From Escherichia phage Ecwhy_1, in the sequence record MH791411.1: a stretch of 64,000 nucleotides of DNA; one strand, 5' to 3'. Positions 3,223 to 21,145 of the stretch are shown here, piece after piece. Made by a program: the position numbers and the translations under genes. The stretch's first letter is position 1, and each line of letters begins with the position of its first letter. The notes under the pieces were generated by a model, which saw only the letters and a program-made list of their open reading frames with translations, was not told where the DNA came from and did no database searches.

Positions 3223-3227
3223 TACTT

Positions 3228-6841: not shown

Positions 6842-7117
6842 TTAAGTATTGTAAATGTCGTGAATAGTGATAAAGTTTTTACGACCGTAAACATGTAAAT
6901 CAGTATCAATGTAGTGCTTATCAAGTACATCCTCGACGCTTAAAGACGTGTCGTGAATATCTTCATAAAATTGTGGATCAACAATCGTGCTTAAGTCATC
7001 TGGCGTTAACTTATCGTTAAGGCATTGAACCGCCTGGATATCTGCTTCACGTTTCCATTGTTCCAGATTAGTAGTCAGTACTTGCTCGATTTCGTTAGCT
7101 GTAAGTAAAGTCCGCAT
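6842..7117 (-). CDS. hypothetical protein (91 aa)
   Basis: ORF; SD AAGGAAAC; tandem promoters with long conserved leader upstream. Confidence 0.6.
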   Translation of the reverse strand: MRTLLTANEIEQVLTTNLEQWKREADIQAVQCLNDKLTPDDLSTIVDPQFYEDIHDTSLSVEDVLDKHYIDTDLHVYGRKNFITIHDIYNT

Positions 7118-7185
7118 TTTAATGTTTCCTTATCAGTGGTTGATGTAAGTATTATACTCGTTTACTTTCTATTGTCAAACTATTT

Positions 7186-7262
7186 TATCAGGGGAGTTTT
7201 TCGTATGTCTTACTCCTGGACTACTTAACGGGGTTACTTATTTCGTTCCCCGTCCTGATGTA
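7186..7262 (-). promoter_or_regulatory. conserved ~75-nt structured leader, copy 1
   Basis: Near-identical to 18400-18478, related to 14990-15060. Confidence 0.5.
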
Positions 7263-7432
7263 AAACATTATACTTGATTCTAAGTACAATGCAAGTACTT
7301 TTTTAAAAATAGTTTTCAGTACTAGCCACCAGCAAACAATAGATACATTTATGCACCCTGTGGGCTAATTTGTTTCTATGCGTATATAATAGCAAAGGGA
7401 CTGACCGGAGTCAATCCCTTTTTCAAATATTT

Positions 7433-7582
7433 TTAAACTTCTTTCGGGTTGCGATATGTGATAGCGTTCGGGTACATTTGTTTAATGTTATTCCATGCCT
7501 GGTTAACATTATAACCACTTGATCGAATCAGTTGGTTATTACCGACACCTTGAAACACTACTTCAAATAAGAATTCTTTCAT
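7433..7582 (-). CDS. hypothetical small protein (49 aa, not in ORF track)
   Basis: ATG overlaps stop of upstream gene (ATGA); SD GAGG. Confidence 0.35.
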   Translation of the reverse strand: MKEFLFEVVFQGVGNNQLIRSSGYNVNQAWNNIKQMYPNAITYRNPKEV

Positions 7583-7752
7583 GCTTTCACCTCTCGATCT
7601 GCTTTGCCTTTACGCCAGGCCGTTGCTAATTGTTCGCGTTGCCATAAGTCGAGTGATACGTAAAGTTTTGCATTATCACCCTTCGGATATTCGCCAGTAG
7701 TACCAATCCGATAAAACAGATCTTTCAGTACTGTTAATTCTACCTGGACCAT
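7579..7752 (-). CDS. hypothetical small protein (57 aa)
   Basis: Trimmed to MVQVEL start; promoter+hairpin upstream. Confidence 0.5.
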   Translation of the reverse strand: MVQVELTVLKDLFYRIGTTGEYPKGDNAKLYVSLDLWQREQLATAWRKGKADREVKA

Positions 7753-7839
7753 TATACTTTCCTCTTTGTTAGGAGGGGAACTATTCCCCTTCCGATATAA
7801 AACATTATACACTTTATTCAGTACTGTGCAAGTACTTTT

Positions 7840-8052
7840 TTAATCTTTCAGCCAATGATCCTGAATGAATTTTTCACCGGAACCTTGCTGCATTGATTGT
7901 AACAGACGTTCGCGATGAGCGGCGGCGAATTGCTCAGTACTATGCGTTACACCTGGTTGATATCTGGATTCACCATTTGGGGCGATGTATTGTACATCCC
8001 ACGGTTTTTCGTTAGTATCAGACCATTTACGAACGATTAGTTGACCTTGCAT
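7840..8052 (-). CDS. hypothetical protein (70 aa)
   Basis: ORF; SD AAGAGGAAAG; promoter + hairpin GGGGAGAATCATTTCTCCCC. Confidence 0.6.
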   Translation of the reverse strand: MQGQLIVRKWSDTNEKPWDVQYIAPNGESRYQPGVTHSTEQFAAAHRERLLQSMQQGSGEKFIQDHWLKD

Positions 8053-8135
8053 TTTTCTTTCCTCTTAGTGGGGAGAATCATTTCTCCCCTTCATGTAAAC
8101 TATTATACAGTACTGGATTGCATTGTCAATAGTTT

Positions 8136-8459
8136 TTATTCACCTTGTTTGAATATAGTTTTCTCCATTGATTCCATGATTGCAACCAATACAGCATGGA
8201 TCTCACTTAACGCGGCATCACTAAAAGCATTAATGAATAGGCAATCATTCTCGCGAATATTTTTAATGTACTTATCAGCAGTGGTTGCGAATTCATTCAA
8301 CGGCAGATCAAATGCTTTATCCCATAATGGATGGCGTAACTGTAACAGTACTGGATTATCACGATCACCAGGGGAAAACGTACCAGTGATGAAACATACG
8401 CCCGGAATACTTTCGAACTGGCAACGGACTTCCTTTGTGATAGTAGTATGAATGTACAT
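8136..8459 (-). CDS. hypothetical protein (107 aa)
   Basis: ORF; SD AGAGGATAAC. Confidence 0.55.
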   Translation of the reverse strand: MYIHTTITKEVRCQFESIPGVCFITGTFSPGDRDNPVLLQLRHPLWDKAFDLPLNEFATTADKYIKNIRENDCLFINAFSDAALSEIHAVLVAIMESMEKTIFKQGE

Positions 8460-8486
8460 TTATTGTTATCCTCTATTAAATTAATA

Positions 8487-8675
8487 TTACAGTTTATGAA
8501 TTAATTCTTTATCTAAGCGATAGCGTACATTATTAATGGTAACAGCATTATTTTTAATGCTACGCTGTACGGGTCCACCAGCAATAACAAACGTTGCTTT
8601 ATTGCCCCGAACAATGATAGCACTTCCAGGATTACCGAAATCATCTTGTACTAAAATACTTGATAAGTTTTCCAT
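8487..8675 (-). CDS. hypothetical small protein (62 aa)
   Basis: ORF; SD AAGAGGAAAT; promoter+hairpin upstream. Confidence 0.55.
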   Translation of the reverse strand: MENLSSILVQDDFGNPGSAIIVRGNKATFVIAGGPVQRSIKNNAVTINNVRYRLDKELIHKL

Positions 8676-8753
8676 TTTTATTTCCTCTTAGTAGGGGAAG
8701 ATGTTTCCCCTTGATGCAAGTACTATAACAGTACTGAAAACTAAATGCAAGTA

Positions 8754-9110
8754 CTATGATAAAATCATGATAGGATATTCACTATCTATCAATACCTCGA
8801 ATCCGAAACCTTCGTACCATTCTTTAAGATTAAAGGCGTTATCTTCTCCCGTATCGCATTCTAAGATGATACAATCTGAATCATCGGCGGCATCAATAAA
8901 GGCATTCATTAATTCGTTACCTTCACCATTGCCCCGACTATCAGGATCAACATAAAGAGAATCAATAAACGCTACACGGTCATAATCAAGATCCGGTGCA
9001 ATGATTCCACGTTTAACAAACCAGTACTGCAATTGTGCTACTTTGCCCTGTACTTGATAGCCAGTGATCTCGCCATTGTCAGTAGTACGCGTGATATGTT
9101 GTATTCCCAT
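8754..9110 (-). CDS. GNAT-like acetyltransferase (118 aa), tentative
   Basis: Motifs RGNGEGN (R-x-x-G-x-G) and NAFNLKEWYEGFGF resemble GNAT motifs A/B; SD GAGGATAG. Confidence 0.45.
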   Translation of the reverse strand: MGIQHITRTTDNGEITGYQVQGKVAQLQYWFVKRGIIAPDLDYDRVAFIDSLYVDPDSRGNGEGNELMNAFIDAADDSDCIILECDTGEDNAFNLKEWYEGFGFEVLIDSEYPIMILS

Positions 9111-9173
9111 GATTACTATCCTCAGTTAAGATATAAAACATTATACACTATCTTTCAGTACTGTCAATACTTT

Positions 9174-9431
9174 TTATCTCATAGATCTATGCCAACAATT
9201 ACGCGGATCTCTTTTAAAAGTACTATCATGATCCTCCTGGCAAGTAATACAATACATGCACCCTATAACGGCCTGGCGTCGATTCTCAGGGATTTTATCG
9301 CCGCAGTCGAGGCAATGTACAAGTGATTCTCTTTGTGCGTTAATTTGCTTTCTAGCGTGGTTAACGGCGGCCTGAATCACTGCATGAATCTCGTCTTGTT
9401 CGGCCCCGTCTTTCGCGTATCCTACTGCCAT
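9174..9431 (-). CDS. TraR/DksA-like C4 zinc-finger protein (85 aa)
   Basis: C-x2-C...C-x2-C with CGDKIPENRR; SD GAGG. Confidence 0.55.
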   Translation of the reverse strand: MAVGYAKDGAEQDEIHAVIQAAVNHARKQINAQRESLVHCLDCGDKIPENRRQAVIGCMYCITCQEDHDSTFKRDPRNCWHRSMR

Positions 9432-9589
9432 TATTTTAACCTCATTATAAAAATACTATAGTACTGTAATGCTACAATAATACTACTAGTGTTTATCTTA
9501 TTCAAACCATATGATACTACATATCCACCAGCATTACCACGAATAGTAACGCCTTTGTACTGTCTATATAAATTCAACTGCGTATATTG

Positions 9590-9668
9590 CCTTTGATCAA
9601 GAATTGATCAGAATTATACGCCTTATGCTAAATTGATCCAGTACTTTTTTGATCATTTATTGATCGAT
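9590..9668. repeat. cluster of five TTGATC motifs (GATC sites)
   Basis: TTGATCAAGAATTGATCAGAA..AATTGATCC..TTTTTTGATCATTTATTGATCG. Confidence 0.5.
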
Positions 9669-9760
9669 ATTATATAGTTACATTTGTGCACCCTATGGGT
9701 TAGTGACGTTCTCGTCTTGATGTAAGTATTATGCCAGTACTGGAGGATATTGTCAATAGA

Positions 9761-9964
9761 TTATTTTAATTTTTTTCTGTCATTGATTAATGCTTTCAGT
9801 ACTATACTAATAACTTGCAATGATTCATCAATGACAATGAAATTATTCTCTTTCATTAGATGATAGTTACCATTGATTGTATATTCTAACGAGTACTGTT
9901 TACGTTTAATTTTTGATAATGTTTCTATTTGTTTTTGTACTGATTTCATGCTAATCATTGTCAA
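9761..9964 (-). CDS. hypothetical small protein (67 aa)
   Basis: ORF; weak SD AGGA. Confidence 0.45.
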   Translation of the reverse strand: MTMISMKSVQKQIETLSKIKRKQYSLEYTINGNYHLMKENNFIVIDESLQVISIVLKALINDRKKLK

Positions 9965-10064
9965 ACGTCCTGTAACGCATTCTAACGAGATAAACGGTTT
10001 AGTACTGGCATTGTATAGGGTAAATGATTAAAGCCCACCAGCGTTAACCAGTGGGCTATAATAT

Positions 10065-10208
10065 TACATCTTGCGGATAATCTTAACAGTATCTTTCACC
10101 GATTTACCGTTTTGCTGACATTGCTCGATCATCGCGTATTGTTCTGCGGTCAGATCCTCGCCAGTTTTTGCCAGTACTGCGTCGATGAATGAATCCAGTG
10201 CGATCATT
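10065..10208 (-). CDS. hypothetical small protein (~47 aa, not in track)
   Basis: TTGACA-N17-TATAAT, SD AAGAGAGAAAT, ATG; coordinates approximate. Confidence 0.35.
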
Positions 10209-10297
10209 TTATTTCTCTCTTAGGTTAAGTTAACTACTGTTTATAAAACTTATTATACAGTACTATCAATCTATGTCAATAGTACTGGTAATATATT

Positions 10298-10477
10298 TTA
10301 GCGGTAGTCGTCGTATGCTTTATTCACCTGGCGAATATAACTTTCAAAGGCTTCGTCTACCGTTTCATACTCCCGAACATAATCACCATATGAAACTACA
10401 TACATACCTTTTTGATCTTCAAACGTCATGATGATAGAATCCAGACCAACGATTTCAGTTTTTGCGATGATAGCCAT
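10298..10477 (-). CDS. hypothetical small protein (59 aa, not in track)
   Basis: TTGACA-N17-CATAAT, SD AAGGAA, ATG. Confidence 0.4.
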   Translation of the reverse strand: MAIIAKTEIVGLDSIIMTFEDQKGMYVVSYGDYVREYETVDEAFESYIRQVNKAYDDYR

Positions 10478-10560
10478 TTTTTAATTCCTTAGTAGTGTAG
10501 TTGATAAAAGTTATTATGTCAGTACTATCAAACTATGTCAATAGTACTGTGATAATATTT

Positions 10561-10773
10561 TTAGTTAATGATAGTCAGTGTAAAATTGTAATCACCGCAG
10601 CGATATAGCACGTTATTCCCAAATGTCCCAACTAATCGCACATCACACAAAACGCCGGTTTTTTCTTTTACTTCCTTGATACTTGTAACTCCTGTAATAT
10701 CTTTATTAAAGTATTCATGATCTGAAAATAAAACTTGTTTTGCATTTTTTAATTTCGACCGGATATTAGCCAT
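10561..10773 (-). CDS. hypothetical protein (70 aa)
   Basis: ORF; SD AGAGAGAAAAC; promoter + hairpin GGGGAGAAAAACTTCTCCCC. Confidence 0.55.
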   Translation of the reverse strand: MANIRSKLKNAKQVLFSDHEYFNKDITGVTSIKEVKEKTGVLCDVRLVGTFGNNVLYRCGDYNFTLTIIN

Positions 10774-10869
10774 TTTGTTTTCTCTCTCTGTTAGTGGGGA
10801 GAAGTTTTTCTCCCCTTGATGTAAACTATTATACAGTACTATAATCTATTGTCAAACTATTTTTTTATA

Positions 10870-11211
10870 TTATTCGAAATCTTCTGGACCGGACTGATAA
10901 TCATCTTCACCGTATGCACTTTCTAACCGCTCGCCAGTGTGATCATCAGTTAGTGAGTCATCCTCATAGTTCACGTCTACGCCAGTGATGTAAAACTGGC
11001 TATCGTCTGGATCATTGAAATTAATTTTCTGTATGTTTACAATAACTGTATTGATGCCCAGGACACCGCCATCAGCCGTTACAAAGTACTGATAGTTTTC
11101 GCAACCGCCTGAATTGAAACCGTAATTAATTTCGGCCCGACCATCATTTAAACGCAGTGCCTGGGCGATGATTTCGTTTTCAAAGTTAGATTGAGCAATT
11201 GAGATAGTCAT
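10870..11211 (-). CDS. hypothetical protein (113 aa)
   Basis: Trimmed to MTISIA start; promoter+hairpin upstream. Confidence 0.6.
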   Translation of the reverse strand: MTISIAQSNFENEIIAQALRLNDGRAEINYGFNSGGCENYQYFVTADGGVLGINTVIVNIQKINFNDPDDSQFYITGVDVNYEDDSLTDDHTGERLESAYGEDDYQSGPEDFE

Positions 11212-11663
11212 GATTTGTTTCCTTATTACCAGGGGAAACCGTTTCCCCCTCTCGATGTAAAACATTATACGCTTATTGAGATAGTTTGCAAGTACTTTCT
11301 ACAAATACTTTTAAAATAGTTTTCAGTACTCAATACTCATATAATAGATACACTTATGCACCCTGTGGGCTAGTGAGCTATCTCTCAATGAATATATAAT
11401 AGCAAAATGGCTGACCGGAGTCAACCACTTTTTTCATTTATTTTTAGCTTTTAGAATCGCCGCCTTTCGCGTCATGCCTTGCTTGATGTATTCTTGTACT
11501 TTCGCTTTACGTGCATTCGCTTTATTTGCTTTCGTAAATGCCGAACAACTTTTATAGTTTAAACCTGTTGGATTCATTTAAATCACCATAAAGAATAGAT
11601 AGGTTACTAACAACGCCGCGATCAATGCACCGACCAGGGCCGAACTATAGTAAGCTAATGTTT

Positions 11664-11816
11664 TCATTTTTTAGCCTGAAAGTAATGTTTAATTTGAGCG
11701 GCGGTCAGTGCACAATTACGCAGGAAGTTTTCTGTATAACTGCGGCGAGTACTGAAAGAGAATTGACCTTTGCCGTTACCGATAGTAACATCAAACCGAG
11801 CGTTGTATTGTTTCAT
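11664..11816 (-). CDS. hypothetical small protein (50 aa)
   Basis: Trimmed to MKQYNARF start; SD AGGAGAATC; promoter+hairpin. Confidence 0.45.
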   Translation of the reverse strand: MKQYNARFDVTIGNGKGQFSFSTRRSYTENFLRNCALTAAQIKHYFQAKK

Positions 11817-11897
11817 TTTGATTCTCCTGTTATTGGGGAGAATCATTTCTCCCCTTCATGTAAAACATTATACAGTACTAAAAACTAATTGCAAGTA

Positions 11898-12044
11898 CTA
11901 TTTTTTAGATTTACGCAAACTTTCTACCATCTCAGGAGTAAGGCCCGGCGGGTAGGAAACTACTTCATCAACGAAACGTAAAGGGAATACCCCAGCGAAA
12001 GGTGAACGTGCTTTCTTAGTATTACTCTTTTTTGATGCTTTCAT
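11898..12044 (-). CDS. hypothetical small basic protein (48 aa, not in track)
   Basis: SD AAGGAATATG; promoter+hairpin upstream. Confidence 0.4.
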   Translation of the reverse strand: MKASKKSNTKKARSPFAGVFPLRFVDEVVSYPPGLTPEMVESLRKSKK

Positions 12045-12113
12045 TTCATATTCCTTAATTAGTGGGGAGAATCATTTCTCCCCTTCATGTAAAACATTAT
12101 ACGCGTTTAAAAA

Positions 12114-12323
12114 CTAATTGCAAGTACTATTTGAAAGTAAATGCTCATACGCTGCATTAACTACGTTTTCAATAACCGACTGTACAGAAAGATCCCCCAC
12201 GTCCTGGCTATAGTAGAAATCGCTTACAGTGGTGTCATCGTATGCAAATACTTTACCAGGTACTGCATCAATCACATACATATTAACCTTTAAGATGTCG
12301 ATCTTATCCTGTACAGTAAGCAT
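12114..12323 (-). CDS. hypothetical protein (69 aa)
   Basis: ORF; SD AAAGG. Confidence 0.5.
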   Translation of the reverse strand: MLTVQDKIDILKVNMYVIDAVPGKVFAYDDTTVSDFYYSQDVGDLSVQSVIENVVNAAYEHLLSNSTCN

Positions 12324-12328
12324 ATTAA

Positions 12329-12601
12329 TTAACCTTTTAAGTACTGGCTTAAGTAGTCTTGTTGATCTTCGGTGATTGCAGCCATCTTCCCTAGTACTGG
12401 ATTAATGATATAATCCCCTGTAACGTCCTGTAACGCATTCTCAGGCGGTTTAACGGCTGGGGTAGCCATAGCCATCGCCTGGACTTGTTCGACGCTATAA
12501 CGCTCATATAGGCGGCATTCTTCCGGTGTTAACATAGCATCAATGCGTTTCATTGGTTTAATGATGCTTTCAACTTCATTCAGTACTTGATTAACGTTCA
12601 T
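12329..12601 (-). CDS. hypothetical protein (90 aa)
   Basis: ORF; weak SD. Confidence 0.55.
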   Translation of the reverse strand: MNVNQVLNEVESIIKPMKRIDAMLTPEECRLYERYSVEQVQAMAMATPAVKPPENALQDVTGDYIINPVLGKMAAITEDQQDYLSQYLKG

Positions 12602-12652
12602 GGTATAATCCCCAATATAAGCGGCCTGAATCGACCGCTAACGATGTTTTGA

Positions 12653-12922
12653 TTAATAGGTGTATGGTTGACGTTCAAACAATGATTGCACGTTGTACGC
12701 CCCACTAATGGGCTTTGCTGGTAAATCAATTTTATATTGCTCACGCTTAAAGATAATAAAACGGCAATTGTTTTTAACATCAAAATTGATTGAACGTTCC
12801 AGTAGTTTACCATCGTGCACAAATACAAGATAACCGCTCGCTACTTGTTTTGTAGTACTGGTTGCAACCATAGACCGCCGAACATGTGTACCTGCGTCGA
12901 TTAAAGTACTGATATTTTTCAT
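12653..12922 (-). CDS. hypothetical protein (89 aa)
   Basis: ORF; SD AAGAGGAACG; preferred over overlapping 12598-12828. Confidence 0.55.
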   Translation of the reverse strand: MKNISTLIDAGTHVRRSMVATSTTKQVASGYLVFVHDGKLLERSINFDVKNNCRFIIFKREQYKIDLPAKPISGAYNVQSLFERQPYTY

Positions 12923-13002
12923 TATACGTTCCTCTTAAGTTAATTTAATTTCTTTCCCCTATGCAGACACTATATCAAAGTATCTGCATAAAGTAAAGCT
13001 AA

Positions 13003-13326
13003 TTAAAGATCTTTTTTGCGTTTAACATTCTGTACAGTACAATGCAACGGGATATTAAGATCATTGCACAAACGAGTAAGGGAGGTTTCATCAGTATTAA
13101 GCCCGTCTACTGATTCCTTTAATAGATCTAACGCCGTTTGTTGATATGCATCTTCATAGCCATAAGTAAATGATTCAACCGCCAGATCATTCAAACCGTT
13201 ATCCAGTTCGACGCTTACATGACAAGAATGATAAGTATTGCCATATGAATCAGTCCAACGTTTACCGTCAACATTGATTGCACGGATTGCAGCCAGGGAA
13301 ACGGTGTTAATGATAGTTTTAGCCAT
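13003..13326 (-). CDS. hypothetical protein (107 aa), paralog of 6160-6483
   Basis: ORF; SD AAGGAATAC; TTGACA-N17-CATAAT upstream. Confidence 0.6.
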   Translation of the reverse strand: MAKTIINTVSLAAIRAINVDGKRWTDSYGNTYHSCHVSVELDNGLNDLAVESFTYGYEDAYQQTALDLLKESVDGLNTDETSLTRLCNDLNIPLHCTVQNVKRKKDL

Positions 13327-13415
13327 TTTTGTATTCCTTAAATTAATATGTTGTCTTGATAAAATCTATTATGCCAGTACTATCAAACTATGTCAATAGT
13401 ACTGTGATAATATTT

Positions 13416-13628
13416 TTACTTACTTTCTTTCGCTGCTTTGTGCGTTGCCACTGCCATAACCACATCAGCACGAACAAAGTTTTTAACCGTGTCGCTGTAA
13501 TAATTGATCGCTTCATCAATATCTGCGAACATCCGATACATACCGCACCACGATACTTTATAACCTGCTTTCACTTCTTCCAGCTTAACCAGTGATTTGT
13601 TAACTTTGATTTTAGTAATGATAGCCAT
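13416..13628 (-). CDS. hypothetical protein (70 aa)
   Basis: ORF; SD GAGGAAAAT; promoter duplicated from 13003 gene. Confidence 0.55.
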   Translation of the reverse strand: MAIITKIKVNKSLVKLEEVKAGYKVSWCGMYRMFADIDEAINYYSDTVKNFVRADVVMAVATHKAAKESK

Positions 13629-13707
13629 TTTATTTTCCTCAGTTGTCTTGATAAAATCTATTATGCCAGTACTATCAAACTATGTCAATAGCACTGTGAT
13701 AATATTT

Positions 13708-13851
13708 TTACTTACTTTTTGCTTTCTTGATTGCTTCCACCTGGTCGGCCCATTCTTTACCCCATACTTGTAAATTATAATGGTACTGGCAAAGAGCAAC
13801 GCCCCGCTTTAAACCCGTAATAGATTTCTGACCACATTGACAAGTTTTCAT
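13708..13851 (-). CDS. hypothetical small Cys-containing protein (47 aa, not in track)
   Basis: SD AAGGAAAC; promoter + hairpin upstream. Confidence 0.4.
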   Translation of the reverse strand: MKTCQCGQKSITGLKRGVALCQYHYNLQVWGKEWADQVEAIKKAKSK

Positions 13852-13937
13852 TTTAGTTTCCTTGTAGTGGGGAGAACCATTTTCTCCCCTTGATGTAATG
13901 TATTATACTTTATTCGATTTACTTTGCAAGTACTTTT

Positions 13938-14165
13938 TTAATTTAATTCATCAAGGCAAAGGATACGCTCAACGCCCAAATCAGTTAAACTAATCGACGG
14001 CACTTGATAGGTTTCAATGTATGCTACACTTGCCCACTGACCGAACTCATTAACGGCCCAGGTATTCATTGCATTTTGCAATTCCGCACCTTCCTTGTTG
14101 GTAATGACTGCAACTACTTGTTCGTTGCCAGTAGTACCAGATACGCGAGTAATGATAATAGCCAT
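13938..14165 (-). CDS. hypothetical protein (75 aa)
   Basis: Trimmed to MAIIIT start; promoter+hairpin. Confidence 0.55.
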   Translation of the reverse strand: MAIIITRVSGTTGNEQVVAVITNKEGAELQNAMNTWAVNEFGQWASVAYIETYQVPSISLTDLGVERILCLDELN

Positions 14166-14401
14166 TGTTTTGATTCCTTTGATTTGGAAGGAGAACCGTT
14201 TCCCCCTCTCGATGTAAAACATTATACGCTAATCTCTTAATCGTGCAAGTACTTTTTATTACTTTTTGCAAAATACTTTAAACGCTCTCAATCGCGTTCT
14301 TACAGCCTTAACGCCACCAGCTAGGGCAATGCATCAGATAATCAGTTTAATGCGTTAGAATCGTTTCTAGGCGGTGCTGGTGGCATGGTAAACGATAAAC
14401 A

Positions 14402-14430
14402 CAAAAAAGCCCACCGTTTAAGGTGGGCTA
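14402..14430 (-). terminator. intrinsic terminator
   Basis: Hairpin AGCCCACC-TTAAAC-GGTGGGCT + TTTTTTGT on - strand. Confidence 0.65.
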
Positions 14431-14450
14431 GTGATTCAGTACTTTAATTG

Positions 14451-14933
14451 TTATGCTTCAACTTTGCGATGAGATTCGATCCATTCCTCGCGAGTCATAC
14501 CGCTGGCGTTAATCGCGTCCAGTACTACCGCAATGCAGTTACCACGCACCGGAATCAGATATTCTTCCCCGTTGTCCAGTACTACCGCTACGCGTTCCTG
14601 AATCCATTTTTTGGCTTTTACTTCTGGCTTGTCTTCCCCATACTTAACCGCCAGGGCTTTTTGTGCCATCTCTGTAACTACTTCCAGATCCAATCCAACT
14701 ACTGCCGCCTGAATACTTTCGATTGTTGCTTGTAGTTCTGCTTCACGGGCCGCCTTTGCCGCTTCAATTTCTGCCGCTTTATTTGCTTGTAGTTCTTTCG
14801 CAGTACTGTACGCGATGTTAAAATTATTGCGTACCGCTTTCATGGTATCGTTATCCAGTTCAGCCAGGATCTCAGCCGCGACGTTAGTTTCATTTGCTAC
14901 CAGTGCTTTGATGAATGATTTTACATTAGCCAT
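14451..14933 (-). CDS. hypothetical Ala/Glu-rich protein (160 aa)
   Basis: Trimmed to MANVKS start; SD GAGGA; long structured leader; terminator downstream. Confidence 0.6.
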   Translation of the reverse strand: MANVKSFIKALVANETNVAAEILAELDNDTMKAVRNNFNIAYSTAKELQANKAAEIEAAKAAREAELQATIESIQAAVVGLDLEVVTEMAQKALAVKYGEDKPEVKAKKWIQERVAVVLDNGEEYLIPVRGNCIAVVLDAINASGMTREEWIESHRKVEA

Positions 14934-14989
14934 TTTATAAATCCTCAATTAAAGTTTAGTTTACGTTTATTAGTGTATCAAAGTTTTCT

Positions 14990-15060
14990 CGACGTGTCCA
15001 GTTTTTCGTTCGACTTACTGGCGGTCTACTTAGTGCTCCCCGTCTTGATGTAATACATTC
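14990..15060 (-). promoter_or_regulatory. conserved structured leader, copy 2 (diverged)
   Basis: Shares ACATCAAGACGGGGA..AAGTA..CGAAAAACT with copies 1 and 3. Confidence 0.4.
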
Positions 15061-15130
15061 TACGCTTTTCTGCGGTAATGTCAACTACTTTCTTAAAACT
15101 ATTTTCAAAGTATCTCAGTACTACGATACT

Positions 15131-15160
15131 ACAAAAACAAAAAAGCCCACCAGGTGGGCT
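15131..15160 (-). terminator. intrinsic terminator
   Basis: Hairpin AGCCCACCTGGTGGGCT + T-run on - strand. Confidence 0.6.
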
Positions 15161-15166
15161 ATGTAC

Positions 15167-15397
15167 TTAATCAGTGAGTAAAATATTAAACACTTTACCA
15201 TTTAACGTTATTGGTGCACTGCTACCAGGCACAAGATCCGTTAGTATACCTGCAATCGCTTTATCATTGGCTACCTTTCCAGTGTCCAACAGTACTACAG
15301 TACTGATAAGATTAACGCTCGTTTCAATATCATAATGCACGGCGTTAAGTAGTTGTGTAGTACTGCTTTCGTTAAGTAAAACAATTCGCTTAGTCAT
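15167..15397 (-). CDS. hypothetical protein (76 aa)
   Basis: ORF; terminator downstream. Confidence 0.5.
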   Translation of the reverse strand: MTKRIVLLNESSTTQLLNAVHYDIETSVNLISTVVLLDTGKVANDKAIAGILTDLVPGSSAPITLNGKVFNILLTD

Positions 15398-15418
15398 GAT
15401 GTTACCCCGTAGTATCTA

Positions 15419-15718
15419 TCAACGGCAATTAATAACGCCGGTATGAGTTACTTTCTCGGTATCCATTACAGTGACCGAACCGCGTTTAGCACTGGCATCA
15501 TAATAAATTGTCGTGCTACCGTTTTCGTCTTCTTCATGGAACGGGCCGTTTTTAAATGCTTCCGGCTGGATCTCTAAATCCTTTAATACAATCTCGCCAG
15601 TTCTTTCATCGGTCATTGCAACAGTGCACTGAATGAATTTTTCACTACTTACATCTAATGACGCATTAACAGCGAAAGAGGAAACAGATAAAGCCAGGGC
15701 GATGATTGCAATTTTCAT
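15419..15718 (-). CDS. secreted protein (99 aa), predicted signal peptide
   Basis: N-terminus MKIAIIALALSVSSFAVNA; SD AAGGATAATC; promoter+hairpin. Confidence 0.6.
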   Translation of the reverse strand: MKIAIIALALSVSSFAVNASLDVSSEKFIQCTVAMTDERTGEIVLKDLEIQPEAFKNGPFHEEDENGSTTIYYDASAKRGSVTVMDTEKVTHTGVINCR

Positions 15719-15802
15719 TTGATTATCCTTAGTTACCAGGGGAAACCGTTTCCCCTTGCGATGTAAAATATTATACAGTACTAAAAACTAATTGCAAGTA
15801 CT

Positions 15803-16039
15803 TTATGATTTTTTATAAAACATTTCAGCAGTGATATTTTTACCCGTTGGCTGTACTTTATCCAGAATTTTTTGATGCCCTGGTCGTCCAAAGGAATATG
15901 ATCCGTAAACAGTAAACCAGTAGTTACCCTCAGTGTTTACATGTACAGCACAATAAGGAACACCACGCGATTCATCACTAGTAAAGTGTGATACCGTTCC
16001 CGTTACATTCGCAGACGTTGATTTGATTTGTTCGACCAT
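15803..16039 (-). CDS. hypothetical protein (78 aa)
   Basis: ORF; SD AAGGAATAAG; promoter+hairpin. Confidence 0.55.
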   Translation of the reverse strand: MVEQIKSTSANVTGTVSHFTSDESRGVPYCAVHVNTEGNYWFTVYGSYSFGRPGHQKILDKVQPTGKNITAEMFYKKS

Positions 16040-16148
16040 TTTCTTATTCCTTAGTTACCAGGGGAACCGCTCCCCCTATGCAAAACATTATACGCGTTTA
16101 AAAACTAATTGCAAGTATTTTAATAAAAAGTATTTGAAAAATAGTTGT

Positions 16149-16290
16149 TGACAAGTGCATCCAGTACTGGCATAATTACTACATCAAGACGAAACAGTCA
16201 CTAACCCACCGGGTGCCGAGATCCGTCTATTAAATGATTCAGTACTGAAAAAGTAACGGGGAGTTATTATCTCCCCGTGTTGTTATTTTG
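16149..16290 (+). ncRNA. candidate small RNA: + strand promoter plus about 100 nt ending at a bidirectional hairpin
   Basis: TTGACA (16149)-N17-CATAAT; leader ACATCAAGACGAAACAGTCACTAACCCACCGGGTGC; hairpin GGGGAG..CTCCCC at 16256-16278 + T-rich; no ORF. Confidence 0.35.
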
Positions 16291-16504
16291 TAAGGTATAA
16301 ACAGAAGTCGCCTTTATTTGCTACGCCGCCAGTGTAACGCGAGGAATAGTTAGAAACGTCCTGGACTTCTGCTATTACCAGGGTATCATCATTCAATTCG
16401 TCGCAGAAGCAAACGGCTGGATCTTGTACGCCGATTTTGTCGGCATGTTCCCGCATAGATTTAACCAGTGCTTCCAGTTGGGAAAGAGTAGTGATATTAG
16501 CCAT
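16283..16504 (-). CDS. hypothetical protein (73 aa)
   Basis: Trimmed to MANITT start; promoter+hairpin. Confidence 0.55.
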   Translation of the reverse strand: MANITTLSQLEALVKSMREHADKIGVQDPAVCFCDELNDDTLVIAEVQDVSNYSSRYTGGVANKGDFCLYLTK

Positions 16505-16588
16505 TTTATTTTCCTCATTACCAGGGAGAACCATTTCTCCCTTTGATGTAAACCATTATACAGTACTGAAAACTAATTGCAAGTACTT

Positions 16589-16777
16589 TTAATTAAATTC
16601 CATAAAATCATTTTCAACGTGCACAACAATCTGATTATTTTTAAAGGACGCAGAAAACTCTATACAATCATAAACCGCTTTTTCTGTTACCAGACTATGA
16701 GCACCAATCGGATTAATTGGGGATTGAATTGTTTCAATCTCGTTACCTTGTTCATTAACGATTAAAATATTAAACAT
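16589..16777 (-). CDS. hypothetical small protein (62 aa)
   Basis: ORF; SD CAGGAGTAAC. Confidence 0.5.
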   Translation of the reverse strand: MFNILIVNEQGNEIETIQSPINPIGAHSLVTEKAVYDCIEFSASFKNNQIVVHVENDFMEFN

Positions 16778-16816
16778 TGCCGTTACTCCTGGATAGTGTT
16801 AACTCGATATAAAGTA

Positions 16817-16999
16817 TTATACGCCTTTATTGCTTAGTGTCCAGTGATCACGCATCATACGCCCCGCACGATCCCAGCTAGTAGGCATGGGTATGCCTTG
16901 CAATTCGTTAGGGGAGATCTCGACCTCGATCCCTACATCAATAACAGTCATTCCAGCTTTCGCAGCTTGCTCGCGGATAACCTCAGATAATGTTGTCAT
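16817..16999 (-). CDS. hypothetical small protein (60 aa)
   Basis: ORF; SD CAGGAGC; leader duplicated with 16589 gene. Confidence 0.5.
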   Translation of the reverse strand: MTTLSEVIREQAAKAGMTVIDVGIEVEISPNELQGIPMPTSWDRAGRMMRDHWTLSNKGV

Positions 17000-17073
17000 G
17001 ATTAAAGCTCCTGGATAGTGTTAACTCGATATAAAGTATTATACAGTACTGAAAACTAATTGCAAGTACTTTT

Positions 17074-17334
17074 TTAATATTGTTTGTCGTCGTCTTCCTC
17101 GATGAATTGACCGACGAAATGATCTACTTTCGCTTTGAGGCTTTTATAATCTTCTTCTACTTCCGTTAAACGTTCCTGGTAGTATTCCAATGCTTCAAGA
17201 TACGCCGCCTCAGCAGTTTTTGCACGCATAGCTAAATTCATTCCACGCGTTTCATCAAATAGCCAATAACCATCGGTGCACTGGCTAATAGATAATGACT
17301 TGCTTAGTACTGTATAGCTAATTACTTTACTCAT
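17074..17334 (-). CDS. hypothetical protein (86 aa)
   Basis: ORF; SD GAGGGTTATC. Confidence 0.55.
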   Translation of the reverse strand: MSKVISYTVLSKSLSISQCTDGYWLFDETRGMNLAMRAKTAEAAYLEALEYYQERLTEVEEDYKSLKAKVDHFVGQFIEEDDDKQY

Positions 17335-17391
17335 TAGATAACCCTCAGTAAAGGCGGGAACTATTACCCGCCATTATCTCAGTACTGAATA

Positions 17392-17631
17392 TTACATTCC
17401 AACCATTGCAGCACGGATCGCAGTAGTGCTATACTTAAAGCCGTCCGGCGTTGTAGTAGTACCGTTGGCTTTTAATCTGCGGTACATACATTCCGCAGCA
17501 ATATCTTTAGTTCTACTTTGTGCGATGCAACTTTGAGCAAGCCGATACAATGACTCACCGTTATTAATCCAAAGGCTTACATTCCAATGAGTTTTGTTTT
17601 TGTGTCCGTTGTAAGTTTTAGTACTAGCCAT
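17392..17631 (-). CDS. hypothetical protein (79 aa), paralog of 19432-19671
   Basis: Trimmed to MASTKT start; shared motif GHKNKTHWNVSLWINN..PDGFKYSTTAIRAAMVGM. Confidence 0.6.
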   Translation of the reverse strand: MASTKTYNGHKNKTHWNVSLWINNGESLYRLAQSCIAQSRTKDIAAECMYRRLKANGTTTTPDGFKYSTTAIRAAMVGM

Positions 17632-17721
17632 TTTTAAATCCTCGTTTGAGCGGGGAACCACTCCCCGCCTCGATATAAAGTATTATACGCTTTTAAACTT
17701 AGTTTGCAAGTACTTTTTAAA

Positions 17722-18333
17722 TTAATATTCGATTGATTCCACTACGCCATCAATAACATTGAATTGATACTCGTTACCCTCAATCAGTGCCGTAATGTTT
17801 TCAGTAGTGAATTGATCCTCATATGCATTCTCTAAATCACGGTACAACTTGCGGGACAATTCACGAATAGTTTCAGTGAGTAGTTCCTCAAGCTCATTAA
17901 CTAACGTTTCTTGTTTTGCGGTTAAATCAGTGTAAGCCGATTCAATGTACCCGCTTACAGTATTCTCATGCGAGTAGTGGGAGTGCGAACGTTTTACACT
18001 CATCGCCAAATCATCTTCATTCAGCAAGTGACGGATTGAGCGATACTTAGTTAATGCTCTTACCTTGCGTAAAAACTTCACTGCGTCAACGTGGTCAGTA
18101 CTGATTGATGCACCGTCACCCTGGGACCAAAAACCACTGAATTGTATTTCAGCGTCATTAATGCCATATTCCGGTAGTACTGTTTCTTTATAGTATTCAA
18201 TTTCACTTTCAGAAAAATAATTGTCGTTTGAGTTTTTTTCACGTTCCCGAACCAGTTCGATAGCTGACGTTTGTTGTTCTGCGTTCAATTCAGAAAAAGC
18301 CATAACATAAGTAGTAGTAGTGATAGTTTTCAT
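17722..18333 (-). CDS. hypothetical acidic protein (203 aa)
   Basis: ORF; SD GAGGGTTAC; tandem promoters with long leader. Confidence 0.65.
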   Translation of the reverse strand: MKTITTTTYVMAFSELNAEQQTSAIELVREREKNSNDNYFSESEIEYYKETVLPEYGINDAEIQFSGFWSQGDGASISTDHVDAVKFLRKVRALTKYRSIRHLLNEDDLAMSVKRSHSHYSHENTVSGYIESAYTDLTAKQETLVNELEELLTETIRELSRKLYRDLENAYEDQFTTENITALIEGNEYQFNVIDGVVESIEY

Positions 18334-18399
18334 TTTGTAACCCTCATTCAGTAGTTGATGTAAGTATTATACGCTTTTAAAAACATTTGTCAAACTATT

Positions 18400-18478
18400 T
18401 TATCAGGGGAGTTTTTCGTGTGCCTTACTCCTGGGCTACTTAACGGGAAGTTACTTATTTCGTTCCCCGTCCTGATGT
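18400..18478 (-). promoter_or_regulatory. conserved structured leader, copy 3
   Basis: Near-identical to 7186-7262. Confidence 0.5.
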
Positions 18479-18557
18479 AAAACATTATACGCCTTTAAAC
18501 ATAGTTTGCAAGTACTTTTTAAAAATAGTTTTCAGTACTGAATAGTAAAAAAAAGTA

Positions 18558-18650
18558 TTGACAGCATTATCAAGTACTGGTATAATATACCCCATGACAA
18601 CAGCTAACCCACCGGGTGCACAATTGTAACTATACTAAACTAATTTTTCT
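18558..18650 (+). ncRNA. candidate small/antisense RNA from a + strand promoter
   Basis: TTGACA-N17-TATAAT then AACCCACCGGGTGCAC; convergent with a - strand promoter at about 18700-18735. Confidence 0.3.
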
Positions 18651-18760
18651 ATAGATACACTCCCGCACCCTATGGGCTACGGCTTATCTGCCAATGAATA
18701 CATTATGCCAGTACTGACAAAATAAGTCAATACCGGCAATTGTAAAGATTTGTAAACTGC

Positions 18761-18997
18761 TTATACTGCAATCGCGTCCAGGCTATAATAATAATAAGTG
18801 CCGTATTGGTGTACTTTATTACCTTTTATTTCAGTACTGAATGAATCCGAACGGTTTGCATATGATGTTAATTTAAAGTACTTTGATTTGCTGATACGTT
18901 GCCATACACCACAGATCCGCTGTAAGTAAGTAGTTTTATTCGTGGTAGTATCTTTTACGGTTTTAACTTCAGTCATATACATATTAGTCATTTTCAT
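18761..18997 (-). CDS. hypothetical protein (78 aa)
   Basis: ORF; SD GGAG (start may be the third codon ATG); promoter + hairpin. Confidence 0.5.
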   Translation of the reverse strand: MKMTNMYMTEVKTVKDTTTNKTTYLQRICGVWQRISKSKYFKLTSYANRSDSFSTEIKGNKVHQYGTYYYYSLDAIAV

Positions 18998-19078
18998 TAC
19001 TCCAGGTTATAGGCGGGAAGAGTTCCCGCTCTCGATGTAAAACATTATACGCCATTAAACATAGTTTGCAAGTACTTT

Positions 19079-19345
19079 TTATTCAAGTACTGCAATCTTT
19101 TTAGTACGGTACACGGTCACGCGGTTGCCCTTTCGGTCGAGCTTTATTTCTACCACTCGACGCGATACACTATCGGGACTTTTTAAGGCCGCTAACCAGT
19201 ACTGTAATGATCTGGCGGTACTACGCTTTACAATGGCCCAACGTTTACCACGTTCCGATTGTACGCCCATATCTTTAAACGTTGCCCCGTCCTGGCGTGC
19301 GGCGATCCGAGCTTGTTCACGCGTCGCAAAATACTTAATTTTCAT
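19079..19345 (-). CDS. hypothetical protein (88 aa), paralog of 5669-6064
   Basis: Trimmed to MKIKYF start; SD AAGGGCAAC. Confidence 0.6.
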   Translation of the reverse strand: MKIKYFATREQARIAARQDGATFKDMGVQSERGKRWAIVKRSTARSLQYWLAALKSPDSVSRRVVEIKLDRKGNRVTVYRTKKIAVLE

Positions 19346-19431
19346 GCTGTTGCCCTTATCGTTGGTGTATGAATAAAACACTATTATAAAGTACTATCGC
19401 AAAAAAATGATAGTACTTTAAATAAATTCTA

Positions 19432-19671
19432 TTACATTCCAACCATCGCCGCACGGATCGCAGTAGTGCTATATTTGAATCCGTCCGGTGTTTTATCTTG
19501 TCCAGTCTGTTCTAAAAATAACATCATATGACGGGCCGCATCATTGCGATTAGTGCTATCGTTAATAAAGTCCTGGGCCAACCGATACAATCCCTCATCG
19601 TTATTAATCCAAAGGCTTACATTCCAATGAGTTTTGTTTTTGTGACCTAAGAACATTTTTGATTTAGCCAT
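19432..19671 (-). CDS. hypothetical protein (79 aa), paralog of 17392-17631
   Basis: Trimmed to MAKSKMF start; promoter+hairpin. Confidence 0.6.
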   Translation of the reverse strand: MAKSKMFLGHKNKTHWNVSLWINNDEGLYRLAQDFINDSTNRNDAARHMMLFLEQTGQDKTPDGFKYSTTAIRAAMVGM

Positions 19672-19764
19672 TTTTTTAATCCTCTTATATAGTGGGGAAC
19701 TATTCCCCACCTGATGTAAAACATTATACGCCATTAAACATAGTTTGCAAGTACTTTATTAAAC

Positions 19765-20127
19765 TTATTTGTAAATTTTGCCACTGTCAGCCCATACCAG
19801 GAAACGAGGCATATTATCCCATGCATCTTGTTTTAAGTTTAAGCCGTGCAATTCCTCAGTTGTTGCCATCCCTGGTACTGGCTTACTACACACCGCGAAA
19901 TTTTCGCCCATATACTGATAAACCATCGTCAAATCATTTGAGATCATTATATGGATCATTGAATCCAGCATCAAAGTAGCGGCGTATTGTTCACGCTTAA
20001 GCGGCAACATTGCAATAAGTTCCCGATAAGCTGCAATGTGAATTTTTACAGTTTCAGCCGGAAGACCTTTCATCTCATCGCGGAAGTTTACCAGGTTAAG
20101 CATGATTTTATTGATTTGAGTCGCCAT
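19765..20127 (-). CDS. hypothetical protein (120 aa)
   Basis: Trimmed to MATQINK start; promoter+hairpin. Confidence 0.6.
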   Translation of the reverse strand: MATQINKIMLNLVNFRDEMKGLPAETVKIHIAAYRELIAMLPLKREQYAATLMLDSMIHIMISNDLTMVYQYMGENFAVCSKPVPGMATTEELHGLNLKQDAWDNMPRFLVWADSGKIYK

Positions 20128-20242
20128 CGTTTTAATCTCTCTTAATGTGTAGCGGGAAGTGTTCCCGCTCTCGATGTAAAACATTATACGCTTTTATCAG
20201 TACGGTGCAAGTACTTTCTACAAATACTTTTAAAATAGTTTT

Positions 20243-20329
20243 CTTTCTATATAGGAGTACTATTATTCAGTACTGCAATCATCCAGGGGAACTATCTTTC
20301 TATATAGGAGTACTATTATTCAGTACTGA
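20243..20329. repeat. 34-bp direct repeat, two copies
   Basis: TCTTTCTATATAGGAGTACTATTATTCAGTACTG at about 20243 and 20296. Confidence 0.6.
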
Positions 20330-20490
20330 ATCAATCCACTAAATCATCCCTATACCCCGTAAAACGTCCTCAGACGCATTCTAACGCATTAATACACATA
20401 AGCTATACATTTGCACCATTCCAATCATTCCAGGGCTTTACAGGCCGTTTAAACGCGTTAAATTATTTTCAATTATTTTGTTTTTAGGTA

Positions 20491-20600
20491 TTGACTTGAT
20501 CCTGAAAAAGCGTATAATTACTACATAGACGCGAGAAAGCGGATACCCCAGGGGGTGGGAAGATCCGTCCAAAATTCAAGATATAAAAAAAGGATACACT
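20491..20600 (+). ncRNA. candidate + strand transcript in the non-coding region
   Basis: TTGACT-N16-TATAAT; leader with CCCCAGGGGGTGGG and GATCCGTCC. Confidence 0.3.
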
Positions 20601-20706
20601 CCCGCACCCTAGCAGGTAAACGCACTTTCTCAGTACTGAAATATAGTACCATAGTCCGGCCCAGGATAGCAAGCAAATTAATTAAAACTTTTTTGCTTCC
20701 AGGGTA

Positions 20707-20800
20707 TTGCTTTATTTTTCCAGTACTGTATAATAGTTCCATCAAGTCGAGAAAGACTCAAGCCCACCGGGTGCATAGTTACGCCCAAAATTCAGTACTG
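20707..20800 (+). ncRNA. candidate + strand transcript in the non-coding region
   Basis: TTGCTT..TGTATAAT (extended -10); leader CCATCAAGTCGAGAAAGACTCAAGCCCACCGGGTGC. Confidence 0.3.
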
Positions 20801-20954
20801 AAAAAATTTTTAAAAATATCCGGCCAGGCCGTTGACATTGCCCCCAGTTTATAAGATAATGATTCCAGATTCAGAAAAATCTAACACCAGATACTGCGGG
20901 GAAACTATCCCCACGCGGTAGGGGAACTATTGGAAAAAACAAAATAAAATTTTG

Positions 20955-21145
20955 ATTTAGCCGTCTATACTTCCAGACGTGTAACCATCTAGCCGTTTAG
21001 CCGTCCAAACGTCTAGCCATCCAGCCATCCAGAAATCTAGCCGTTTAGCCGTCTAGATGGATAGCCATCTTTACTTCCAGACTTCTGGAGGGCTAGACAT
21101 ATCTACGCCCAAAATCCATCCAGGGTAACTACGCCCAAAATCCGT
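20955..21145. repeat. iteron-like cluster of short direct and inverted repeats
   Basis: About 10 copies of TAGCCGT/TAGCCAT in about 120 bp; CTACGCCCAAAATCC twice; palindromes CCAGA..TCTGG, GATGG..CCATC. Confidence 0.5.

Follow-up and report, generated by a model that had tools for sequence, protein, structure and literature searches.

Strand-biased clustering of Chi sites in the putative terminal repeat of an Asteriusvirus jumbo coliphage and its probable reading by host RecBCD

Lambda chi+ mutants and Chi-protected linear or rolling-circle DNA contain single mutational or engineered Chi sites. The octamer concerned, GCTGGTGG, is the experimentally defined Chi of Escherichia coli (PMC8022716), and natural clusters of it have been described at the ends of several phage genomes. 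According to the work of Subramaniam and Smith (bioRxiv 10.1101/2021.07.08.451572), as cited in PMC12315714, such a cluster is located in and near the terminal redundancy of phage P1 (also of P7, D6 and NGUA22), and terminally clustered Chi sites were noted in the lambdoid phages of the LLS class (Genome Res 2025, PMC12315714). Terminal Chi clusters are therefore already known and, in principle, are no surprise to a RecBCD specialist; a link between Chi and the jumbo phages of the group considered here is apparently unreported in the literature searched. The present analysis concerns a DNA stretch of 64,000 nucleotides from Escherichia phage Ecwhy_1 (sequence record MH791411.1), hereafter the window, in which a dense array of Chi sites was found in the part corresponding, by homology, to a direct terminal repeat (DTR).

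According to BLAST analysis, the window shows 93-98% identity to Asteriusvirus jumbo myoviruses of Escherichia (121Q/PBECO4 group, records of 348-386 kb). These relatives include phages isolated on E. coli, K-12 MG1655 among the strains, and we infer from this homology that E. coli is the host of the window phage. The closest genome was that of fEgEco12 (PP777464.1), onto which the window maps in reverse complement. The whole fEgEco12 genome was assembled, and the window was compared with the assembly using BLAST. The ends of fEgEco12 are an exact direct repeat of 20,993 bp, 100% identical at both termini, which agrees with the published PhageTerm result, confirmed by restriction digests (PMC13070987). 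The restriction enzymes used on this DNA all cut it as predicted in silico (PMC13070987), indicating that it is not heavily modified. A DTR of 21,525 bp is annotated in the record of vB_Ec-M-J, and one of 20,668 bp was reported for Sharanji.

By homology to fEgEco12 (BLAST), positions 1-21864 of the window most likely represent the ~21-kb DTR of an Asteriusvirus jumbo coliphage, displayed as the reverse complement of the fEgEco12 and vB_Ec-M-J record orientation. The left physical terminus is at window position 21864, which aligns to fEgEco12 record position 1. Window position 1 aligns to position 20904 of the 20,993-bp repeat, so the right physical terminus should lie ~89 bp before the window start. 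The DTR contains ~55 short early-type genes on the window - strand, a location that fits the negative GC skew over the repeat; most of them have a promoter-like TTGCAA-N16-TATAAT sequence in front and a hairpin terminator after them. The terminal 1.7 kb of the DTR, on the side of the left terminus, is gene-free.

The exact Chi octamer, counted on either strand, occurs 15 times in the window. Twelve copies are on the - strand (starting at 1272, 3074, 4978, 7326, 8575, 9525, 10035, 14314, 21268, 40804, 51449 and 61982) and three are on the + strand (14376, 21280 and 28313). The first-pass annotation of this DNA had reported + strand copies at ~14375 and ~21280, each paired with the complement CCACCAGC at ~14314 and ~21268; all four are present, at 14376-14383, 21280-21287, 14314-14321 and 21268-21275, respectively. 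The further CCACCAGC copies that it gave at 1274, 7326, 9527 and 10045 also exist, with true starts at 1272, 7326, 9525 and 10035, and the sites at 3074, 4978, 8575, 40804, 51449 and 61982 (-) and at 28313 (+) had been missed. The annotation was right that the octamer exceeds chance expectation, and the excess is much stronger than it had stated. In 100 dinucleotide shuffles of the window, 0.67 +/- 0.89 copies were found (maximum 3) versus 15 observed, and Markov models of order 1-5 gave an expectation of 0.6-2.6.

The number of sites is thus far above chance, and the sites are concentrated in the terminal repeat. The DTR part of the window (1-21864, 21.9 kb) holds 11 of the 15 copies, and the other 42.1 kb holds four. 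Each DTR copy of fEgEco12 has 12 Chi sites versus 24 in the 332,747 bp of unique DNA. This density is 8-fold that of the unique region, at whose rate 1.5 sites would be expected (Poisson P = 7.5e-8), and the local Markov expectation for the DTR is 0.2-0.5 sites. The phage vB_Ec-M-J has 11 sites in its 21.5-kb DTR versus none at 21.5-50 kb (28.5 kb).

Chi sequences differ between hosts, and in Pseudomonas a different Chi, GCTGGCGC, is known. What is enriched in the repeat is the E. coli octamer itself. Among all octamers of the fEgEco12 DTR, Chi is the sixth most over-represented, and the five that outrank it belong to the CAGTACTG family or are a -10 promoter word. The 30-nt flanks of the 15 window sites are unrelated to one another, which indicates that the octamer is enriched on its own and not together with a repeat family; the idea that Chi is the passenger of a repeated element was rejected for this reason. 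When the 24 one-mismatch variants of Chi were pooled, they numbered 5-8 per DTR or terminal segment, versus 11-14 exact copies in each of four defined DTRs and six in the segment of a Yersinia phage described below. Since the flanks are unrelated and the one-mismatch variants are not enriched, it is the exact host octamer that has accumulated. The repeats contain about one Chi per 1.4-2.0 kb, more than twice the density of E. coli itself (1 per 4.6 kb; PMC12315714) despite a G+C content of 38%.

The enrichment is not a codon effect, because the sites occur both in intergenic DNA (7 of 12 in the fEgEco12 DTR) and in coding DNA, where the five copies fall into two different reading frames. Non-coding DNA makes up 32% of the repeat, so that the intergenic preference is only marginal (P = 0.05; P = 0.18 with each pair taken as one site), and no claim is based on it. 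Where Ala-Gly-Gly is encoded in the fEgEco12 DTR, it is spelled as Chi (GCT-GGT-GGN) in three of three cases versus 12% expected from codon usage (P = 0.002); for the unique region, the corresponding values are 17 of 26 versus 25% (P = 1.5e-5). Chi thus seems to be mildly favoured genome-wide and strongly concentrated in the repeat. In the unique DNA, this spelling bias may reflect a codon-pair effect or weak selection that favours Chi beyond the repeat as well.

The orientation of the sites was judged against the termini taken from fEgEco12. RecBCD coming from a double-strand end must meet Chi from its 3' side, and top-strand Chi is active for the enzyme entering from the right (PMC12315714). 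The DTR sites are oriented in this manner. The ratio of top-strand to bottom-strand sites, in record orientation, is 9/2 in the window, 10/2 in fEgEco12 and 9/2 in vB_Ec-M-J, and the strand bias is also seen in two more distant phages (12/2 and 6/0). In the right-end copy of the repeat, RecBCD entering the right terminus would face 9-10 Chi sites in the active orientation, the first of which (window 1272-1279) is ~1.36 kb in and the last of which is the - strand site at 21268-21275. In the left-end copy, the enzyme entering the left terminus would face two such sites, 0.58 kb and 6.6-7.5 kb in. In the window, these are precisely the two + strand sites of the first-pass annotation: 21280-21287, the first Chi on the way in from the left terminus, at a distance of 577 bp, and 14376, the second of just two, ~7.5 kb in. 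Each of them has a majority-strand site close by, at a distance of 12 nt or 62 nt (P = 0.001 for random placement).

It is the position within a terminal repeat, not recognised in the first-pass annotation, that gives these orientations a meaning. That annotation treated the inverted pairs as the main feature, but 9 of the 11 DTR sites in the window point one way and are unpaired. Its suggestion of genuine host Chi sites, which would act on RecBCD by way of protection or recombination, fits the E. coli host, the exact octamer, the enrichment, the placement at the ends, the orientation and the occurrence in other genera; its emphasis on hairpins misses the principal feature of the region.

Similar arrays were found in other phage lineages. 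Klebsiella phage fENko-Kae01, a member of another genus, has about 29% average nucleotide identity with fEgEco12 (PMC13070987). Its PhageTerm-defined DTR (1-19736) contains 14 Chi sites (12 top, 2 bottom) versus two in the next 30 kb. The sequence CCACCAGC-TTAA-GCTGGTGG is located at 484-503 from its left end, the second bottom-strand Chi is at 7013, and four sites lie inside promoter spacers, between the -35 and -10 elements. In the Yersinia phage fHe-Yen9-04, six Chi sites, all on the top strand, are present within 2.6-12.7 kb of the early region, which has 34% G+C. The first 17 kb of XbC2 (Mimasvirus) contains nine sites, seven on the top strand and two on the bottom strand, one of the latter being 216 bp from the record start. 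The divergent Asteriusvirus EJP2 retains homologues of the window sites 7326 and 14314 and, near its terminus, has two opposite-strand Chi sites at new positions, about 90 nt apart and in swapped order. The overall picture obtained from these sequences is that Chi density and polarity in the repeat would be the maintained property, with individual sites turning over.

Phage XbC2 (OP292654.1) had been reported on Xanthomonas vesicatoria. The G+C content over the first 20.8 kb of this phage is about 41%, and many Chi sites of the E. coli type are present in the terminal region; its genus, Mimasvirus, is that of Cronobacter phage GAP32. The host assignment or history of XbC2 deserves a second look.

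Among the known systems, P1 shows a clear likeness to the window phage. In both cases, many exact copies of GCTGGTGG are concentrated at the packaged DNA ends and terminal repeats with a biased orientation, and the role proposed for them is recombination of the terminal repeats by RecBCD and RecA after injection. The authors of the fEgEco12 genome analysis also invoke P1-like circularization via the repeat (PMC13070987). However, P1 is a temperate phage with headful packaging from a pac site and a variable, permuted terminal redundancy, whereas the present case is a virulent myovirus of ~350 kb with a fixed, exact ~21-kb DTR, and its array lies inside the repeat, largely in early genes and their intergenic spacers. 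In addition, RecBCD dependence has been measured for P1.

The LLS class is comparable in Chi density, which is 1 per 1.86 kb in LLS, a RecBCD-dependent phage (PMC12315714). It is also comparable in the strand bias toward the orientation active from one end (20 to 3 in LLS versus 9-12 to 2 here) and in the clustering of sites toward that end. Phages of this class have cos ends, genomes of 30-58 kb and neither a recombination module of their own nor an anti-RecBCD function; the jumbo phages differ in having long DTRs and a small opposing set of Chi sites at the other end. They differ as well in their recombination genes: the annotation of fEgEco12 lists RecA/UvsX-like, UvsY-like and gp46/47-like proteins, the last as a recombination endonuclease subunit and an SbcC-like subunit. 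The window phage may thus work like the terminal Chi arrays of LLS and P1 while standing outside the class defined by the lack of a recombination module.

Lambda chi+ shares with the present case the single octamer and its orientation-dependent action on RecBCD at a double-strand end, which results in attenuated degradation and RecA loading; it differs in that a natural, conserved multi-site array is found here. The virulent coliphage T5, whose DNA is AT-rich and whose long, exact DTR carries early genes, has two Chi sites in its first 30 kb (8127-8134 and 8689-8696), both in the 10.2-kb DTR and on the same strand. This density (0.2 per kb) is 2.5-3.5 times lower than in the jumbo phages, and T5 contains no opposed pair. 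T5 had been intended as a control with a Chi-free DTR; with two DTR sites it does not serve as such and shows only a lower density.

Taken together, the number, identity, location and polarity of the sites suggest that the DTR probably carries a functional Chi array, which would switch end-loaded RecBCD from a nuclease to a RecA loader inside the repeat. We infer from the established biology of RecBCD and Chi, and from the P1 and LLS precedents, that RecBCD has access to the ends, that it recognises Chi within this DNA and that the phage benefits, through protection, recombination-dependent replication or both. The virion DNA is linear with the repeat at both ends, and RecBCD would load on a free end after injection or after a later cut that generates an end. 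From the right end, the enzyme would run into the repeat and meet 9-10 correctly oriented Chi sites (the - strand sites from 1272 to 21268 in the window), the first after ~1.4 kb. From the left end, it would meet two (the + strand sites 21280 and 14376), after 0.58 kb and ~7.5 kb. At Chi, RecBCD would cease degrading the 3'-ended strand and load RecA onto it. This strand would lie inside the repeat and could therefore invade the other repeat copy: a 3' end produced at a top-strand Chi in the right copy would invade the left copy of the same or a sister genome and be extended rightward, with the reverse for the left end. The outcome would be circles or head-to-tail concatemers in which each unit has a single repeat, together with a primed replication fork. 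Losses would be limited to the outermost 0.6-1.4 kb, and the loss of early genes would be limited as well.

Several observations weigh against this interpretation. The phage has its own T4-like recombination set (RecA, a single-stranded DNA-binding recombination protein and SbcCD-like gp46/47 in the fEgEco12 annotation), and the need for RecBCD is therefore not obvious, since Chi-rich lambdoid phages typically lack such a set. The strand bias is partly compositional: the G-rich sense strand and the five G residues of the octamer would produce an estimated ratio of roughly 2:1 versus roughly 5:1 observed. The left end is guarded by two Chi sites only. Within Asteriusvirus, the terminal double-Chi palindrome is conserved no better than its flanks (identity 0.76 versus 0.91). 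GCTGGTGG is also enriched in XbC2, reported on Xanthomonas, so that the intended host-mismatch control failed; as a Mimasvirus with the same Chi-rich terminal region, XbC2 is invalid as a negative control. Enrichment was likewise found in the Yersinia phage fHe-Yen9-04, and Yersinia genomes were without a detected Chi signal in the survey of Buton and Bobay (PMC8022716). Some Chi sites of XbC2 and fHe-Yen9-04 are homologous coding positions, inherited rather than independent; for this reason, the two phages do not test host matching, and room is left for a role independent of RecBCD.

If the array is functional, the strategy of recruiting RecBCD rather than blocking it would extend from temperate P1 and small lambdoid phages to virulent jumbo phages of ~350 kb with long exact repeats, and there would be a concrete reason for the make-up of these terminal repeats. 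The efficiency of phage-therapy candidates of this group would then be predicted to depend on the host status of recB, recC, recD and recA and on Chi-recognition variants. For annotation, a Chi-dense, strand-biased block can serve as a cue: where the assembly of an enterobacterial jumbo phage is permuted, it shows the position and polarity of the terminal repeat.

The inverted pairs were considered separately. The first-pass annotation had described 9-bp and 8-bp inverted repeats, and both were found. The pair at 14313-14384 consists of a - strand Chi, seen as CCACCAGC at 14314-14321, and a + strand Chi, GCTGGTGG at 14376-14383, placed back to back, with 9-bp arms (14313-14321 and 14376-14384) 54 nt apart. 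The second is the double-Chi palindrome CCACCAGC-TTGT-GCTGGTGG at 21268-21287, with arms 21268-21275 and 21280-21287, in the gene-free terminal 1.7 kb. The trinucleotide CAT, said to follow both + strand sites, does follow them in the window but is not conserved (fENko-Kae01 has GCTGGTGGATG) and was treated as a coincidence. Any two opposed Chi sites form an inverted repeat by definition, so the inverted repeats and hairpins are a by-product of the arrangement; both hairpins are the two left-end-facing Chi sites, each beside a right-end-facing one, and no separate devices.

In an alignment of 10 Asteriusvirus genomes, the terminal palindrome was complete in seven; A4 had lost it, and CMSTMSU had lost half of it. 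Purifying selection on the palindrome was rejected, given its identity relative to the flanks and the observed turnover and loop inversion. The 4-nt loop is TTGT in three genomes and its reverse complement ACAA in four, with collinear flanks. This flip-flop suggests an inversion between the 8-bp arms and hence that the arms do pair or recombine.

An extended version of the proposal can be formulated, which we consider possible but rather doubtful. Host RecBCD would be a required or strongly beneficial factor for the start of replication in a virulent jumbo phage that has a T4-like recombinase of its own, and the oriented Chi array would act as a recombination-dependent "origin". RecBCD at the injected end would become a RecA loader at Chi. 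Invasion of the other repeat copy by the 3' end would then prime the first fork and lead to concatemers. The palindrome ~0.5 kb from the left end would be a boundary protecting the terminal packaging region, such that neither incoming enzyme might cross it, and the flip-flop of its loop would reflect extrusion in vivo.

Another selected benefit of the same interaction between RecBCD and Chi could be evasion of adaptation by clustered regularly interspaced short palindromic repeats (CRISPR), although this seems unlikely. RecBCD, by degrading DNA from a free end up to the first Chi, provides Cas1-Cas2 with spacer precursors, and Chi limits spacer acquisition from DNA ends, as reported by Levy et al. 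in 2015 and Modell et al. in 2017. In the window phage, the zone of spacer precursors would be shrunk to about 0.6-1.4 kb, in line with the first correctly oriented Chi being 577 bp and about 1.36 kb from the respective termini and with an array dense enough to make passage of RecBCD through it unlikely. By sequence, this explanation is indistinguishable from a Chi array acting in recombination, but it leaves unexplained the extent of the array over the whole 21 kb and the genome-wide bias of Ala-Gly-Gly codons to Chi, and CRISPR adaptation is inactive in many E. coli strains.

It is quite unlikely that the octamer is read by a factor other than RecBCD, for instance a DNA-binding protein, encoded by phage or host, with a role in packaging, early transcription or the initiation of replication, with the identity to Chi being incidental. 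The enrichment in XbC2 and in the Yersinia phage, that is, in phages of hosts without established use of GCTGGTGG, would fit such a factor, although enterobacterial ancestry is the simpler reading for XbC2, given that it belongs to the genus of GAP32. Several Chi sites are located at or near promoters, between the -35 and -10 elements in fENko-Kae01 and, in the window, a short way upstream of promoter-like regions; however, the position varies from upstream of a promoter to the spacer, a hairpin loop and two coding frames, and the octamer has no extended consensus around it. Moreover, the chance that the top octamer unrelated to expression in a coliphage repeat is the Chi of the host is about 1 in 65,000.

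A function of the hairpins or cruciforms themselves, with Chi being secondary, appears distinctly improbable. They might serve as a replication origin, as a mark for packaging or cleavage close to the left terminus, or as a target or barrier for a structure-specific nuclease. The close spacing of the minority-strand and majority-strand sites (12 and 62 nt) would be consistent with this, as would the recurrence, in fENko-Kae01, of the 20-nt palindrome with a different loop at about 0.5 kb from the left end, the occurrence of the loop in both orientations among close relatives, which is expected if the arms pair or recombine, and the predicted DNA hairpins, whose stability exceeds that of shuffled sequence (z = -2.6 to -3.7). 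Most DTR sites in the window are nevertheless unpaired, the pair at 14313-14384 has no counterpart pair in fENko-Kae01 or EJP2, the two opposite Chi sites near the terminus of EJP2 are about 90 nt apart and in swapped order, A4 has no palindrome, and the palindrome is less conserved than its flanks. No T run follows the pair at either 14313-14384 or 21268-21287, so the palindrome is not a terminator. With stems that are Chi octamers and the pair at 14313-14384 absent from fENko-Kae01 and EJP2, a functional hairpin of the intrinsic-terminator or structured-RNA type was rejected. A scan of 2.9 million viral contigs for CCACCAGC-N4-GCTGGTGG gave 46 matches, which is of the order of the chance expectation for a 16-base pattern; they were mostly GC-rich contigs or terminator stems, with a few Chi-rich loci of ~50% GC and one relevant match (121Q). 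The scan thus carried little information on the double-Chi palindrome as a general phage device.

Finally, an origin of the Chi count in chance, base composition, codon usage or a repeat family, which could be sought in the G-rich sense strand (GC skew), in the same Ala-Gly-Gly spelling of four of the five coding sites of the fEgEco12 DTR and in the location of six unique-region sites of that phage in one array of RCC1-like paralogues, is practically untenable and was refuted by the tests run, given that shuffles never exceeded three sites and Markov models 2.6, that flanks are unrelated and mismatch neighbours not enriched, and that more than half of the DTR sites are intergenic with an excess over the rest of the genome at the P value given above.

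As for the individual sites, the one at 1272-1279 (-) is intergenic, ~25 nt upstream of a promoter-like UP/-35 region. The sites at 3074-3081, 8575-8582 and 9525-9532 (all -) are coding, in the Ala-Gly-Gly frame, in the homologues of the fEgEco12 genes g048, g032 and g029, respectively, and the site at 4978-4985 (-) is in the Leu-Val frame of the homologue of g043. The intergenic site at 7326-7333 (-), kept in the divergent EJP2, has a terminator-like hairpin on one side and the next promoter on the other. The site at 10035-10042 (-) is also intergenic and overlaps the loop and 3' arm of the terminator-like hairpin tagcccac-tggttaacGCTG-GTGGgcta. This hairpin (10022-10049) has a conserved 12-nt loop, TGGTTAACGCTG, and Chi is completed by the 3' arm. 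A hairpin with an identical loop was found in fENko-Kae01 (19341-19368), in a different place in the repeat, and the stems show compensatory changes (tagcccac/gtgggcta in the window versus aaggccac/gtggcctt in fENko-Kae01).

The pair at 14313-14384 is placed in an untranscribed gap. On one side of it, an intrinsic-terminator-like hairpin at 14408-14429 (-), AGCCCACC-TTAAAC-GGTGGGCT followed by a T run, ends the upstream early gene (open reading frame (ORF) 14451-14948, -). On the other side, a promoter-like site at 14221-14248 (-), with the -35 element TTGCAC at 14248-14243, a 16-nt spacer and the -10 element TATAAT at 14226-14221, precedes ORF 13938-14222; its layout is the same as in the TTGCAA-N16-TATAAT sites before most DTR genes.

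Outside the DTR, the site at 28313-28320 (+) is coding (..AWAGGY..) in ORF 27968-29206, an RCC1-like paralogue, and has a homologous site in EJP2. The other three are on the - strand: 40804-40811 is on the sense strand of ORF 40284-40934 (-), 51449-51456 is within ORF 51358-51615 (-), and 61982-61989 is within ORF 61827-62069 (-). The region 26881-42136 of the window contains a tandem array of ~13 paralogous genes, 360-415 aa each and mostly on the + strand, for which the annotations in relatives are RCC1-like protein, GTPase regulator or "chromosome condensation regulator". Six of the 24 Chi sites in the unique DNA of fEgEco12 fall within this array, each on the sense strand. The phage has ~670 genes, of which roughly 490 are hypothetical.

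A signal much stronger than that of Chi is given by the palindrome CAGTACTG. It occurs at 68 sites in the window, most densely in 1-28000 (e.g., 21247-21254, 21310-21317 and 21335-21342), and its core AGTACT occurs 286 times in the 64 kb, about once per 224 bp. The excess ranges from roughly 8-fold (octamer, order-3 Markov model) to 13-fold (hexamer, estimated from base composition). In the DTR of fEgEco12, about half of the copies are intergenic, and their distance to promoters is not fixed. The genome paper on CBB makes no mention of the motif. In fHe-Yen9-04 and XbC2, words of the NAGTACTN type likewise lead the over-represented octamers of the terminal region.

In addition, a short direct-repeat array (tagccgtttagccgtctag... 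/ ccagacg...) was found at 20914-21070, about 0.8-0.95 kb from the left terminus. BLAST analysis showed weak matches of this array to sequences within a few hundred bases of the ends of many unrelated phages, namely, Erwinia, Serratia and Yersinia jumbo phages, Vibrio phage Pontus and Escherichia phage PGT2 (42.7 kb); the Aeromonas phages AhSzq-1, AhSzw-1 and AhP_Mru1 (about 112-117 kb) match it weakly as well. This array may be a packaging or end-recognition repeat.

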